A stretch of DNA of 64,000 bases from Escherichia coli (GCF_003334335.1 NZ_QOWQ01000010.1); one strand, 5' to 3'. Positions 54,874-62,037 are shown, numbered from the stretch's first letter. The notes: generated by a model not told the origin, from the letters alone. Made by a program: numbers and translations.

Positions 54874-54898
54874 ATTCTGCAGACACTGTCTGCAGAAT
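54874..54898. repeat. perfect hairpin ATTCTGCAGAC-ACT-GTCTGCAGAAT (member of local GAATTC/CAGAC hairpin family), convergent terminator position between yhcH and yhcG
   Basis: Directly seen 11-bp perfect inverted repeat with 3-nt loop; no flanking U-tract. Confidence 0.8.
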
Positions 54899-54913
54899 TC
54901 GAAACCGCTGAAA

Positions 54914-56041
54914 TTAACGGCGTCTATAGCCTTCCTCTAGCACCGCCTGTGTTCGAACGAGTTCATCTGCGAGTCGTTTCTCATCAGGTAGTTGCATCTT
55001 ATATTCGCTTGCCAGAACGGTGTTAGGCAAACCTGCCAGAGCATAATGCGCTTCTCCGGCTCCTTTCTCTGCACAGAGAACCAGACCGATGGGCGGATTT
55101 TCATCCGGTAGCGTCCAGTGCTCTTTGGCGTAGTTGAGATACATATTCATCTGTCCGGCATCGCTATAGCTGAATTTGCCCACTTTTAGATCGACGATTA
55201 GCAGGCAGCGTAAACGGCGGTGGAAAAACAGCAGATCGACACGAAACCAGTTGTCATCAATGCGTAACCTTCGCTGCCGACCAACAAAGGCAAAATCATC
55301 CCCAAGTTCCAGCATGAAATCCATCAGGTGGTTGATCAGCGCCTCCTCAAAATCGGATTCTGAATATTCATCTTTCAATTCCAGAAATTCGAGCACAAAG
55401 GGATCGCGTATCGCCTGTTGCGGAAGAATATGCGTCTCGGCAGGAGCGTGTTGTTGCAGCATGGCTGATTTGTCATGTGACAGTAGTGTCCGCTCATAAA
55501 ACTGGGTCGCAATTTGCCGCTCTAGCTGGCGAACAGACCAGCCACAGCGGAGCGTCTCTTTTTCATAAAAGCTGCGGGCGTCAGCGTTTTTAACGGAAAG
55601 TAAACGGACGTAGGTGGACCTGGGCAAGGGGAAAGATTTGGCAGACAGCGTCTGCCAAATCTTTGCCGATGGGAATTCTGCAGACGGTGTCTGCGGAATT
55701 CCCAATGGTGTTAATTCGCCAGACATTGTCTGGCGAATTTCAACATGTTGAAAAAAGAGGTAAAAAAGCCTCATTTGGCGTAAGTTTTTTGCAGAGAACC
55801 CACGCTTATACCTTAGACATAAATCCTTTGATAGTCGCTTGATTAGCTGCGCACCATACGCAGCCCTGGCCTCGCCACCTTGTTCAAATTCGACAATTCG
55901 TCGGCCAATTTCCTGGTACGTCGCGGTCATTAACGCGTTAACGCTACGTACCGTTTCCGTCCGGGCGCTATCGACCAGATGAATAATACCGTCGTGGATT
56001 TGCTGGTAGCCTGCTGTGGTTCCTTCTGAGAGCGATTCCAT
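54914..56041 (-). CDS. yhcG: DUF1016 family protein with predicted C-terminal PD-(D/E)XK nuclease-like domain
   Basis: 375-aa ORF; N-terminal YhcG_N-like region, central low-complexity segment encoded by hairpin repeats, C-terminal region with acidic/Lys motifs (IVDLKVGKF) compatible with restriction-endonuclease-like fold. Confidence 0.85.
   Translation of the reverse strand: MESLSEGTTAGYQQIHDGIIHLVDSARTETVRSVNALMTATYQEIGRRIVEFEQGGEARAAYGAQLIKRLSKDLCLRYKRGFSAKNLRQMRLFYLFFQHVEIRQTMSGELTPLGIPQTPSAEFPSAKIWQTLSAKSFPLPRSTYVRLLSVKNADARSFYEKETLRCGWSVRQLERQIATQFYERTLLSHDKSAMLQQHAPAETHILPQQAIRDPFVLEFLELKDEYSESDFEEALINHLMDFMLELGDDFAFVGRQRRLRIDDNWFRVDLLFFHRRLRCLLIVDLKVGKFSYSDAGQMNMYLNYAKEHWTLPDENPPIGLVLCAEKGAGEAHYALAGLPNTVLASEYKMQLPDEKRLADELVRTQAVLEEGYRRR
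55632..55739. repeat. three tandem hairpin units (39-bp period) lying in-frame inside yhcG
   Basis: Directly seen: AAAGATTTGGCAGAC-AGC-GTCTGCCAAATCTTT (15-bp perfect stem), GGGAATTCTGCAGAC-GGT-GTCTGCGGAATTCCC (1 mismatch), AATTCGCCAGAC-ATT-GTCTGGCGAATT (perfect). Confidence 0.85.
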
Positions 56042-56225
56042 TATCTGTCCCTTTATATGGAGCTAAGTTGAATAATGGAATGAGCTATACTCTGGGGGGT
56101 GAGCACTGAACAATTAAGAACAGCGTATTACATTTACTTTCCCCAAGATATGCGAAGAGCTTTCCTGAAACATTAACCGATCGTATAAAACGAATGCCTG
56201 ATAGTACTCCTGTCCGGCATTGTTA

Positions 56226-56942
56226 TCACAAGTAGACTACGCTTATCACAGCTTTCCCATCAAGTTCGATTTTTTCTGAACCGCCTAAATCATTCGCGAT
56301 AGATGCGCTCACCTGAAGCGGTATAATGGCGTTCGTTACAGGAGTTGGGGTTGTTTCACCTGGTTTTACAAAGGTGTAATAATAGCTTTGATCGACTGCA
56401 AGCGGATAAGCGGTGAGCGTTTGCCATGCTCTTTTTTGCCCTGTTATGACGGCATCTGCACCTGCTATTGATACAGCTAACGTCTGGCTACCATTGCTGG
56501 CACTAATGTTGTTGCTATCAATTAACACGGCATAACTACCGATATTTTTATTATCTTTTGTTTTCCCTAAGCCGAATAAGCGCGTTGTCTGGCTAATATA
56601 ACCTCCGCCATTTAAGGTATATTTTACACCACTCTGACCCCCACTATCTTTTCCGGTGGTCATACTATCCATTCGTGTATCACGAGCGGTAATCGCAATG
56701 CCGGTAGCGGATTCGCAAGTTATAGTCATATTAATATTACGTGTTCCAATCTGTGTGTAGTGCTGCGTTGAAAGTCTATTGACTGAATGACTACCGAAGT
56801 TAACAACTCCGCCGTTGCTTAGTATTGGAGTACAAGCTGCAGCTTCCAGAGTCACCTTAACGTCAATTGATACTCTATCAGCGGCTTGCGCTGACATGGC
56901 AAAAAAGGCACTTCCGGCAATCAGTAATTTTACATTGTTCAT
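56226..56942 (-). CDS. yhcF: DUF1120 family secreted protein (putative fimbrial-like subunit), paralog of GltF
   Basis: 238-aa ORF with signal peptide; shares motifs with gltF product (ACTP..GG.V.FG, NITC, GLG, LDGxAxISVxYL C-terminus). Confidence 0.85.
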   Translation of the reverse strand: MNNVKLLIAGSAFFAMSAQAADRVSIDVKVTLEAAACTPILSNGGVVNFGSHSVNRLSTQHYTQIGTRNINMTITCESATGIAITARDTRMDSMTTGKDSGGQSGVKYTLNGGGYISQTTRLFGLGKTKDNKNIGSYAVLIDSNNISASNGSQTLAVSIAGADAVITGQKRAWQTLTAYPLAVDQSYYYTFVKPGETTPTPVTNAIIPLQVSASIANDLGGSEKIELDGKAVISVVYL

Positions 56943-59882: not shown

Positions 59883-60557
59883 TTATTTTAAGTCAGTGAC
59901 ATATTTATTACCGCGATAACCATATCGGCTGGCTGGGTAAAACTCGACTTTTGTATCCGTAGCGTTTGTTAATGCAGTAGTTGTACTGGTGTGTGGTAGA
60001 AAATAGGTCTTATTTATAGCCCCCGTTTTTCCTGAAGGGAGCGTTTTAAATTGTAAGGTCATACGAACGACATAATTACTGGGGTTGCTAATCTCAATTT
60101 GGTCGCCATTTTTACGCCATTCCAGGAATTTCCAGGTCTCTCGCTCTTCCGGCAGGGAAGCCGGGTGGATCAGTACAGGTAGATCCTGACGAATTGAAAC
60201 AGTAACTCTGCTGCTCTTGTCATCTTTTGGTGGAATACCTTCGAACGTTACGCGTTTCAGCTCTTCTGATTGCAGAGGAACAGTCGCCTGAAGTAAAAAT
60301 CGAACCTGTTGTACTTGACCGGCTTCAACACGAATAACGGGCTGAGTCGGGATTAAACGAATTGATTTATTGCTTTCAGGCAAATCAACAATGGTGGTGT
60401 AAAGCAATGAAGGATGATCATCTGTATTCTTAATATTAATACTAGCTTCACCACGCTTTTCATCAACCAGCAATACTGATGTTTCAGGAACCATCCCTGT
60501 GGCTAAGGTATTCATTGATGTTGTTATAAATACAGTGAATGTAATGTGTCTGAGCAT
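59883..60557 (-). CDS. yhcA: periplasmic fimbrial chaperone (PapD-like)
   Basis: 224-aa ORF with signal peptide and Ig-like chaperone N-domain pattern. Confidence 0.9.
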   Translation of the reverse strand: MLRHITFTVFITTSMNTLATGMVPETSVLLVDEKRGEASINIKNTDDHPSLLYTTIVDLPESNKSIRLIPTQPVIRVEAGQVQQVRFLLQATVPLQSEELKRVTFEGIPPKDDKSSRVTVSIRQDLPVLIHPASLPEERETWKFLEWRKNGDQIEISNPSNYVVRMTLQFKTLPSGKTGAINKTYFLPHTSTTTALTNATDTKVEFYPASRYGYRGNKYVTDLK

Positions 60558-60728
60558 TTAAATTAAAACTCCTGTAATAATGATAAATAACGCAGAAACA
60601 TATTGTTAATATATGTTATGCACTGTTTGCGATGAGATTGATTAAGACAGACCATGTCATAGGGCATAATCTGTCCGAGTTATAGCTAACTGGTTAATGC
60701 GTAAAAATAAAAACTGTATTACAAGTTC

Positions 60729-61493
60729 TTATAAATACTGAACGCTGATAGTGACGTTACCATCCAGTTTGATCGTTTCATCAGAACCAAGAATAGTATT
60801 GTCATTTACCGCAGCATCAATCAGTAACGGGAAGGTGACCGCTGTAATGGCAACAGGTGTCAGTTCCCCTGTTTTTGCAACAGAATAACCGCGCTCGATT
60901 GCTGAGCAACTTGTCAGCGAGCAGAATGCGCCATTAGATGAGGCTTTCCATGTGGGGGTCGCTGCTGACCAGTGGTCAGTTTGAATCAGGTCGACAGGAA
61001 TTTCACCTGTATCGTCCGCCGCGTGAATCCCACCATTAGACCTGTCAATACCAATGGATGCAGCGCCAATTTTTTGTCCATTAGGCGCAGAACCTAAACC
61101 AAAGGCGTTTTTCGTTCCCTTCATATCTACGAGAGTATCATAAGCTTTTTCAATATAGGATGTGTCGTTTAACGCTACAATGGTCGACTGACGGTTATCC
61201 TTGGAGGTTACAGCAATTAGCGTTGGTGCTGTGCAGGTTATATTTAATGTGCTGTTTTTGCGGCCCAGTTGAACCAGTTTATTACTTTTACCGGTCGGAT
61301 TCAGCGCACTGTTATGATGTTTCCCATAGTCAACAATGCCGCCGCCCGTAACAACTGGGGTACATGCACCAGGGGTATACTCGCCGATGATAGTTAATTC
61401 TGTATCAGTTGAATCTGTTGCCATGGCACTGAATGCTGCAACAGAAAGTGCTGCACAAATAGCAGCTGTTGTGAGGTTCTTTTTGAAAAACAT
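60729..61493 (-). CDS. gltF: DUF1120 family periplasmic protein GltF (fimbrial-subunit-like)
   Basis: 254-aa ORF with signal peptide MFFKKNLTTAAICAALSVAAFSAMA; paralogous to yhcF. Confidence 0.9.
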   Translation of the reverse strand: MFFKKNLTTAAICAALSVAAFSAMATDSTDTELTIIGEYTPGACTPVVTGGGIVDYGKHHNSALNPTGKSNKLVQLGRKNSTLNITCTAPTLIAVTSKDNRQSTIVALNDTSYIEKAYDTLVDMKGTKNAFGLGSAPNGQKIGAASIGIDRSNGGIHAADDTGEIPVDLIQTDHWSAATPTWKASSNGAFCSLTSCSAIERGYSVAKTGELTPVAITAVTFPLLIDAAVNDNTILGSDETIKLDGNVTISVQYL

Positions 61494-62012
61494 ATGAACA
61501 TATCCTTAATAACAAATTTATTTTTTAAAATAAAAAGCTGAAGCAGTATATATATCTGTTTGTGAATGTAAATAAATAACTCGTTCAGAAATAGCCAACT
61601 TGCTGGGATGTATTTATTTAATGAATTTTATAGTTACGATCATGTGAATAATAAGGTGCTGGTGAGGTGGTTTGTGGTGATAATTATTCATTACATGAAT
61701 GTTTGCGCTGAAAAATAGGAAAATATATAGATAATTAAGGATAATATATTGGTTTTTTATATTCATATTTTGTATATTAATATCGAGACAATTTACATGA
61801 AATGAAAAGACTGAATAGCTTGCAGAATCGGTATTGTCAGAGGTGTTAACAAGTAATTGAGACGGATTGTAAATGAGAAATTGCTTGATGTGCTTCACTC
61901 ATCAGACTTGGTGAACAAAGCACAATTTATTGAAAATTATCCCTATTATAGGAAAGGTCAAACGCTCATGCCGCATTTGCCAGAAAACAACGCGCACTTC
62001 GTCAGTAATTTG

Positions 62013-62037
62013 ATTCGCCAGACACAGTCTGGCGAAT
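62013..62037. repeat. perfect hairpin ATTCGCCAGAC-ACA-GTCTGGCGAAT (same family as 54874 and 55632-55739) just downstream of gltD stop
   Basis: Directly seen 11-bp perfect inverted repeat, 3-nt loop, flanked by GAATTC. Confidence 0.8.

Follow-up and report, generated by a model that had tools for sequence, protein, structure and literature searches.

Several well-described systems keep a cis-acting DNA site inside the gene of the protein that uses it, among them the iterons of the lambda replication origin (ori) in gene O, the pac sites in small-terminase genes and the phiX174 origin in gene A. A different precedent is provided by the Rickettsia palindromic elements, sequences of ~100-150 bp that are found as in-frame insertions in many unrelated genes. 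Here, we analysed a 64,000-nt stretch of Escherichia coli DNA (NZ_QOWQ01000010.1; the whole stretch is called the window below), in which five hairpins in and around the nuclease gene yhcG span positions 54874-62037. These five hairpins are the E. coli copies of a palindrome that is typical of YhcG/DUF1016 nuclease genes. Judged from the sequences compared, almost every YhcG/DUF1016 gene in bacteria and archaea appears to carry a perfect palindrome at one fixed coding position, and we propose this gene-embedded palindrome as a new class. A literature search for yhcG, DUF1016 or the candidate defence family PDC-S02 in connection with a hairpin, palindrome or cruciform revealed no description of the element.

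Like the sites in lambda, the terminase genes and phiX174, the yhcG palindrome is a dyad DNA site that often occurs in tandem, occupies the codons of a flexible linker and is inherited with the protein as a unit. Unlike those sites, it has no replicon or packaging context and resides in a chromosomal nuclease gene, and its binding by YhcG is something that we infer. With the Rickettsia elements it shares that palindromic DNA is translated in frame as a tolerated peptide, but it measures 25-33 bp and is confined to one fixed position in one gene family. A third comparison concerns the repetitive extragenic palindromes (REP), their composites, the bacterial interspersed mosaic elements (BIME), and the REP-associated tyrosine transposase RAYT (TnpA-REP). 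Here, too, short palindromes with a conserved structure form tandem clusters beside the gene of a DNA-cleaving enzyme, and copies lie past stop codons, where REPs stabilise the upstream mRNA. The differences are that BLAST with one unit, which misses arm variants, finds 2-4 places per genome instead of hundreds, that the primary copy lies inside a coding sequence (3/5 in the window), and that the enzyme is a PD-(D/E)XK nuclease and not an HUH Y1 transposase. An identity with REP or BIME was rejected, as the conserved GCCKGATGCG core with 5' GTAG is found in 0/5 units; the description of the hairpins as not REP-like in the initial annotation of this DNA was therefore correct. REP cores do occur elsewhere in the window (31418-31792 and 43309), and a BIME array at 31384-31798 (91-bp tandem, 4.5 copies, 97% identical, paired REPs with GCCGGATGCG / GCCTGATGCG cores) indicates that true REPs are present and distinct from the palindromes.

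The initial annotation had reported one palindrome after yhcH, three inside yhcG and one after gltD, and we found all five at these places, with the three internal copies on the minus strand within the coding sequence of yhcG (Table 1). All units follow the pattern ATT-N3-CAGAC-N3-GTCTG-N3-AAT. The exact core CAGACNNNGTCTG starts at 54880, 55642, 55681, 55720 and 62019 without a sixth match in the 64 kb, and this is not a random occurrence, since the mean expected by chance is 0.03 and five copies were reached in 0/100 dinucleotide-preserving shuffles. That the family occurs nowhere else holds within the window; whole E. coli genomes were probed only by BLAST with a 41-bp unit, a method that returns the above-mentioned 2-4 places per genome and is blind to copies with other arms. 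The N3 arms are complementary in four of the five copies, with one T.G/C.A position in the copy at 55675-55699, and the variants inside yhcG are CGC, CYG and TGG. Folded as single strands, the units reach -10.9 to -18.5 kcal/mol (z-scores of -6 to -8) and the three-copy block in yhcG reaches -50.7 kcal/mol (z of -14). The internal copies are all in frame and spaced by exactly 39 bp (13 codons), with 6-14 nt between the stems. They have C-G closing pairs, one shared phase and, on the sense strand, the loops AAT, ACC and GCT, and the third copy adjoins a PRSTY motif, the equivalent of the LSWSHY motif of other family members. The MG1655 RefSeq record contains no annotation at the palindrome sites.

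The two intergenic copies are satellites derived from the gene-embedded element. The satellite at 54874-54898 and 17 nt of its flank match the internal unit at 55658-55699 with 79% complementarity, which identifies this satellite as an inverted copy of the 39-bp unit. The satellite on the gltD side has arms identical to those of the internal copy at 55714-55738 (repeat match of 92%). In one E. coli allele (P0021, 391 aa), the yhcG stop is lost and translation enters the downstream satellite palindrome, which indicates that the satellite keeps the reading pattern of the internal copies.

The occurrence of the palindrome beyond E. coli was surveyed in a scan of one genome per species with a pattern of 16 fixed bases; the matches listed are a lower bound and no measure of taxonomic frequency. 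At least 120 loci carry the pattern. The matches listed include bacteria (Bacteroidota, Firmicutes, Actinobacteria, Acidobacteria, Verrucomicrobia, Planctomycetes, Proteobacteria, Cyanobacteria and others) as well as archaea (Methanoperedens, Methanoregula and Woesearchaeota), and in most of them the free N3 arms are complementary. Among the 142 matches listed, including the five of the window, 97 are located inside open reading frames (ORFs) homologous to YhcG, ~90-160 residues in; 13 further ones lie <=400 bp from a yhcG-like ORF, and the remaining 32 are without one in the fetched locus. An alignment of 29 proteins showed that the encoded peptide I-x-Q-T-x-S-[AG]-[KEQ] directly precedes LSWSHY, and that minimal members contain one copy and others two or three with variable low-complexity linkers between them. 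Hence, the family is not primarily the local E. coli miniature repeat that had been considered among other possibilities, since the palindrome occupies the same yhcG codon position across bacterial phyla and archaea.

As the genome scan had pre-selected the sequence, a separate gene sample was drawn. It consists of yhcG-like genes from viral and prophage contigs that were picked solely by peptide patterns of the C-terminal nuclease domain, and it is partly redundant. In about half of its 80 loci, the codon position in question (aa ~95-112) is occupied by a hairpin with a 3-nt loop and at least 8 bp of uninterrupted pairing, and such hairpins are almost absent elsewhere in these genes. When mismatches are allowed, ~58 of the 66 distinct genes have a hairpin, which usually ends a few nt from the Leu codon of LSWSH. 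The cores are diverse and comprise CAGAC, GAGAC, CGACAC, CGTATC, CCACTC, GTCCGC, GAACGC, TACAC and others. A hairpin score measured over the 51 nt preceding LSWSH had an observed mean of 8.1, compared to 3.3 when the genes were recoded synonymously according to their individual codon usage and 3.0 in other windows of the same genes; scores >=8 were reached by 57% of the genes at this position and by 0.4% of the other windows.

Covariation was analysed in 50 distinct hairpins aligned on the loop. These had been collected with our own hairpin finder, a selection that inflates the percentage of paired cells and leaves two-sided changes unaffected. Two-sided changes were observed at 13/13 pairs and in 191 cells versus 66±7 in shuffles, and the covariation score was 0.715 compared to 0.184 and to <=0.14 with partners slid. 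The claim that the palindromes keep their pairing through two-sided changes, made for the copies in the window, was correct. Its reading as selection for structure held up in part: pairing is kept, but template switching during replication can also keep palindromes perfect. The encoded peptides vary by lineage (IVVSLIRQ, IASAVRTQ, KGETLSHL and others), which indicates that the conserved object is a nucleic-acid structure and not a peptide. Among the peptides of the CAGAC class, the combinations of residue 2 with residues 7-8 (L/AK, V/AQ, C/GK, R/GE, G/DQ) are exactly those required by the pairing of the bases. The encoded peptide is a passenger.

What remains constant across lineages is the position and the codon phase, with the first loop base at codon position 3 in 47/50 hairpins, a C-G closing pair in 48/50 and an R-S-Y loop in 49/50. 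The stems comprise 8-16 Watson-Crick pairs, and the arms differ between lineages. We propose to define the class as a triloop palindrome with C-G closing pair, R-S-Y loop and set phase that ends at or near the Leu codon of LSWSHY. The internal copies of the window fit this class in closing pair and phase, and the loop AAT is the exception, as it departs from R-S-Y at its centre. In the unbiased set, 540 of 569 pairs are of the Watson-Crick type, while G.T accounts for 7, A.C for 10 and other combinations for 12, so that the mismatch classes occur roughly in the ratio expected from fresh transitions and transversions. The genome set alone contains 7 G.T versus 16 A.C. Loop classes are about as frequent as their reverse complements (ACT/AGT, ACC/GGT, GCT/AGC, GCC/GGC), and the common Thr codon ACC was found at the loop as Thr codon in 0/97 cases. 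The lack of wobble tolerance and of strand preference points to DNA rather than mRNA as the level of conservation, and the pattern corresponds to an odd-centred DNA palindrome, unlike an evolved RNA stem-loop. The covariation that had been taken as a sign of selected structure thus lacks the G.T tolerance of a classical RNA-structure signature.

The protein encoded by yhcG is composed of a DUF1016_N domain (aa 19-184; PF17761, 1.3e-36) and the PDDEXK nuclease domain YhcG_C (aa 208-360; PF06250, 1.6e-56). It matches the PADLOC candidate defence family PDC-S02, many profiles of which are partial. A fold search with YhcG retrieved structures similar to restriction endonucleases and NucS, and Kosinski et al. 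(2005) found the protein to be closest to archaeal Holliday-junction resolvases and YraN. A solved structure of YhcG was not found by sequence. The AlphaFold2 model of E. coli YhcG has a predicted local distance difference test (pLDDT) value < 50 and no secondary structure at aa 101-123, and the copy adjoining LSWSHY may form a short helix. The YhcG/DUF1016 family has more than 8000 homologues, which is a lower bound. DUF1016 genes are enriched beside type I restriction-modification systems and programmed-inversion or phase-variable loci (PMC9881135) and are present on integrative conjugative elements (ICE) and Rickettsiales amplified genetic elements (RAGE; PMC4316617). Escherichia, Salmonella and Pseudocitrobacter share the gene order gltB-gltD-yhcG, so that yhcG is vertically inherited in these Enterobacteriaceae. 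A stationary-phase small RNA, G0-10703, is divergent from yhcG and overlaps its 5' untranslated region (UTR) by 128 bp (PMC7967276); its region upstream of yhcG (MG1655 ~3367641, minus strand) corresponds to window position ~56200, and the data of Adams et al. include a strong 3' end at this place.

Within E. coli, yhcG alleles that are 90-100% identical elsewhere differ sharply across the palindrome stretch, in the number as well as in the order of the internal copies (Table 1). One arm variant is found at different positions in different alleles, and the CTC/GAG variant is internal in one allele and downstream in another. The yhcH-side satellite, which is unannotated, is present in 3712 of 5426 complete E. 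coli genomes. Its variants in the species have the loops ACT, AGT or GGT and in part CTC/GAG arms. C/G changes at the exact centre were observed in two different hairpins of this one species and look like loop inversions rather than point mutations. In a truncated yhcG allele, the breakpoint lies exactly at the left base (55636) of internal palindrome 3, and the nuclease-domain half together with the yhcH-side satellite is replaced by ~470 bp with a 101-aa ORF. The replacement segment is present in 726 E. coli genomes including BL21 (L201 6530-7000 in strain MLI023K2). RefSeq designates the 101-aa protein (WP_000639208.1) as a transposase; it has no Pfam or NCBIfam match. In another allele (L202), an IS1 insertion resides in an arm of internal palindrome 3.

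The gltD-side palindrome is separated from yhcG by the variable segment gltF-yhcADEF (~5.9 kb) and lies at the gltD-proximal end of this segment. O157:H7 and MLI023K2 are without the segment, so that the distance between gltD and yhcG is 184 bp, and they have another hairpin after gltD. In strain 18KM2445, the gltD-yhcG interval holds genes for VWA, DUF5682, AAA ATPase and DUF5691 proteins.

Table 1 Palindromes of the yhcG region in the window, their host gene, the adjoining variable segment and the internal copies of E. coli yhcG alleles.
Feature	Position	Strand or setting	Description
yhcG, 375 aa	54914..56041	-	Host gene of the internal palindromes (ORF, translation, Pfam)
Internal palindrome nearest the N-terminus	55713..55739 (unit 55714-55738)	-	Sense AATTCGCCAGAC-AAT-GTCTGGCGAATT, 12-bp stem, encodes I102-R-Q-T-M-S-G-E109
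Internal palindrome 2	55670..55704 (core 55675-55699)	-	16-position stem, one C.A (sense)/T.G (antisense), encodes I115-P-Q-T-P-S-A-E122
Internal palindrome 3	55632..55664 (core 55636-55660)	-	15-bp perfect stem, encodes I128-W-Q-T-L-S-A-K135
Satellite palindrome, yhcH side	54874..54898	Between the convergent stops of yhcH/nanQ (54854) and yhcG (54914)	ATTCTGCAGAC-ACT-GTCTGCAGAAT
Satellite palindrome, gltD side	62013..62037	16 bp downstream of the gltD stop (62053)	ATTCGCCAGAC-ACA-GTCTGGCGAAT
Variable segment gltF, yhcA, yhcD, yhcE, yhcF	56170..62052	-	Alignments and annotated regions
O157:H7 allele, 349 aa	Equivalent of 55713..55739		One internal copy
K-12 type allele			Three internal copies in the order CGC, CCG/CTG, TGG
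L205 allele			Three internal copies in the order CTG, CTC, CGC
L208 allele			Two internal copies in the order GTG, CGC

Copies outside the canonical position occur in other genomes as well. In four loci of the clostridial type (L043, L064, L080 and L017), one copy is placed downstream of an extended -10 box and upstream of the ribosome-binding site, and a second one inside the gene; two of these (L064 and L080) have a third copy past the stop of the yhcG-like gene, which in L080 corresponds to the internal copy rather than to the first one. In locus L088, a 48-bp direct repeat with a perfect palindrome (1137-1186 and 2323-2372) brackets a yhcG-like gene whose internal copy is decayed. The repeat resembles an att-like duplication, and the flanking ORFs are ones that we take, from their sequence alone, to encode a methylthioadenosine/S-adenosylhomocysteine (MTA/SAH) nucleosidase and a ZapA-like protein. 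In L112, the gene next to a type I hsdR gene on its downstream side is an unrelated ORF of 255 aa with a palindrome of the family at either end (3739-3763 and 4685-4709), which looks as if a different gene had come to occupy a hairpin-bounded slot. In L102, an N-terminal yhcG fragment ends right past the hairpin and is fused to another ORF, likewise taken to be FdhE-like because of its CxxC motifs. In L012, a solo hairpin stands beside a yhcG remnant of mere 37 aa, and some of the solo hairpins, at the least, are what is left of yhcG genes that have been lost. The neighbours of solo hairpins are mixed and follow no clear rule (SIR2-like genes, a phosphorothioate-DNA (PT-DNA) restriction enzyme, PDC-S62 and housekeeping genes). 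Two further arrangements were noticed. One subfamily (L188 and L191-L195) has a second perfect 8-bp hairpin, GCAGCGCC-NNN-GGCGCTGC, at ~2965-2992 in codons 6-9, with the loops TTC, CGC and TTT. In L165 and L152, a hairpin TTGTGCAG-N7-CTGCACAA with arms like the outer stem of the family follows right past the yhcG-like stop; its centre measures 7 nt, and it could represent a satellite that has decayed or diverged.

We consider it somewhat less than an even chance, with a rough probability of 0.4, that the palindrome acts as DNA. It would then be a cis site able to form a hairpin or cruciform and tied inseparably to a resolvase-like nuclease, by which it is probably recognised. The site would be inherited together with the nuclease, and YhcG would probably bind and possibly cut the palindrome, given that the catalytic domain of this protein is similar to Holliday-junction resolvases and to NucS. 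Such a site would probably serve gene control or self-recognition. The structure would also make the locus recombinogenic, which would show in varying copy numbers, inverted loops, arm variants swapped between copies, and alleles that are truncated or replaced from the base of a stem onwards. In a transcript, the palindrome would fold as a stable RNA hairpin able to mark an mRNA 3' end, as past gltD; both recombinational instability and RNA 3'-end formation may thus be by-products. A pairing of YhcG with the palindrome is suggested by the resolvase/NucS-like nuclease domain and by the breakpoint at the stem base, and a nuclease or recombinase site is the function that we would put first.

A number of observations speak against this explanation. 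Binding and cleavage of the palindrome by YhcG are inferred, and a recognition of the arms by their sequence does not fit well with three different arm variants in a single gene. All copies are located in transcribed regions, and for one of them the position at an RNA 3' end is demonstrated. No flanking copies with a perfect stem >=8 bp were found in the unbiased sample, from which it follows that flanking copies are secondary or not essential, and that the internal copy is the universal feature. Some gene pairs are discordant in identity (for example N 51% versus C 88%) without a sharp breakpoint at the hairpin, and the end points of N-terminal fragments in other genomes are spread over various positions instead of being confined to the hairpin. 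The notion of the hairpin as a sharp recombination boundary between the N- and C-terminal parts was not supported as a general rule; the DNA alignment shows a gradient. Finally, homogenisation by template switching could produce perfect palindromy without G.T pairs and would then say nothing on the level at which selection acts, and a role in RNA could be compatible with such an origin of perfect pairing.

A more far-reaching version, which we regard as doubtful, is that YhcG and the embedded palindrome form a self-contained module of enzyme and site, in which a resolvase-like nuclease recognises the hairpin or cruciform of its own gene. Recognition would then drive the flip-flop of loops, tandem amplification, the dispersal of satellites and the exchange of adjoining DNA. 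If true, the module, of a kind not described so far, could provide a new way of homing or site-specific recombination, or could act as a defence switch responsive to the structure or topology of DNA, and it would be widespread in bacteria and archaea.

Rather doubtful, too, is a function as RNA hairpin. In the yhcG mRNA, the hairpin would be an obstacle to ribosomes, RNA polymerase or 3' exonucleases, slowing or halting them, and would thereby set the balance between the N-terminal fragment and the full-length nuclease or limit the expression of a toxic enzyme; in 5' UTRs and past stop codons, it would serve as a stabiliser or 3'-end determinant of mRNA like REP. Direct support for one copy comes from published Term-seq data, in which Adams et al. 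(2021; PMC7815308, supplementary file 1) list a 'primary' gltD 3' end at MG1655 3360660(+). We checked the coordinates and found that, in the listed sequence, this end falls 4 nt past the stem of the gltD-side palindrome, which indicates that this copy folds in RNA in vivo and marks the end of the gltBD message, formed either by termination or by an exonuclease block. To this extent, the idea of an RNA stability element put forward in the initial annotation was borne out for the gltD copy only; 3' ends were not reported at the other four copies, and the list contains none in yhcH or in yhcG, which is weakly expressed. The clostridial-type copies between the -10 box and the ribosome-binding site or past the stop would also suit such a role, as would the facts that all copies are transcribed and that the stems are very stable. 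The pairing statistics argue the other way, because G.U is tolerated no more than other mismatches (14 G.T versus 26 A.C in the sense orientation of both sets combined, and 22 other) and the loop classes are symmetric under reverse complement. The loop always has 3 nt with mostly complementary bases 1 and 3, which corresponds to an odd-centred DNA palindrome and not to a stable RNA tetraloop, and a U-tract is missing. Regions of Rho-dependent termination in yhcG were dismissed as an effect of the hairpins, as one precedes them at ~+80 nt and the antisense strand is affected as well. A programmed frameshift caused by the hairpin was likewise discarded, given that the T-run of K-12 (CTC TTT TTT) is not a proper X XXY YYZ sequence and is missing in other alleles.

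A scan of 54600-56400 for intrinsic terminators did not call the palindromes, and the absence of U-tracts, pointed out at the outset, was verified for all five copies; the yhcH-side copy has the tails TCGAAACC / CTTTAAAAC and the gltD copy the tail CAAATTAC. With intrinsic terminators and 3' stabiliser hairpins the palindromes have in common a stable stem-loop directly past stop codons and, for the gltD copy, the position at a mapped 3' end. They differ by the invariable 3-nt loop, the missing U-tract and the presence of the same structure in coding sequences. A perfect 11-bp stem at 16471-16495 of the window, AAAAGGCCGGA-AAA-TCCGGCCTTTT, is outside the palindrome family and looks like an ordinary bidirectional terminator. 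Integron attC sites are comparable in that structure is kept while sequence varies, that a single strand folds into a hairpin and that single genes are flanked (L112, L088). They were rejected because the stems have no bulges, no GTTRRRY motifs border the units and no integrase ORF is found among the neighbours; moreover, the palindromes lack R''/L''-L'/R' boxes and extrahelical bases, measure 25-33 bp compared to 57-141 bp and have their main copy inside a gene. A CRISPR array does not agree with a 39-bp period, 6-14 nt between stems, differing arms and an in-frame location in a coding sequence. An Rfam covariance-model search of 54700-62200 returned no relevant match up to E = 10.

It is unlikely that the palindrome has no function of its own and merely descends from an ancestral quasi-palindrome in a permissive linker, which perfects, duplicates and flips itself by template switching and leaves intergenic copies as scars of lost yhcG genes. 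Perfect Watson-Crick pairing without a wobble class would be expected from such a process, and the arms indeed evolve fast and in concert, the C/G centre flips within one species, the linker is disordered, and many yhcG pseudogenes and solo hairpins (e.g. L012) exist. What this explanation accounts for poorly is that one codon position and phase, the C-G closing pair and the R-S-Y loop are kept across unrelated arms, and that the element is found in ~85% of the unbiased gene sample, archaeal genes included. Unselected palindromes are prone to deletion and would have been lost repeatedly over such a time depth.

Quite improbable is a double-stranded operator for a dimeric protein, either the N-terminal domain of YhcG or a host factor, which would repress by roadblock or looping and use the dyad as two half-sites. 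The lack of G.T tolerance and the symmetry running through the centre would agree with this, and some loci have sites near the promoter, inside the gene and past the gene, a layout comparable to the operators OE/OI of gal and O1/O2 of lac. Yet the N3 arms CGC, CYG and TGG differ within one gene and still stay complementary, which half-site recognition does not need, and the arm sequences of close subfamilies are wholly unrelated. Hardly credible, finally, and rejected by us, is a protein feature in the form of a conserved I-x-Q-T-x-S peptide with accidentally palindromic codons: the peptide I-x-Q-T-x-S-[AG]-[KEQ] recurs in many homologues and the LSWSHY-side copy may be helical, but synonymous recoding almost never reproduces the hairpin, the covariation of residue 2 with residues 7-8 follows base pairing, lineages with the unrelated peptides IVVSLIRQ, IASAVRTQ and KGETLSHL keep the hairpin, and intergenic copies exist.

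The palindrome is a concrete and testable candidate for the substrate or control element of the large YhcG/DUF1016 family, with a structure that persists from phylum to phylum and a sequence, and even an encoded peptide, that drift. It also offers a clear natural case of a constraint at the DNA level that dictates amino-acid covariation, which has consequences for how covarying residues or 'conserved motifs' of these proteins are read. For E. coli, the palindrome explains the hypervariable stretch of yhcG, a common truncation allele found in BL21 among others, and the end of the gltBD transcript.

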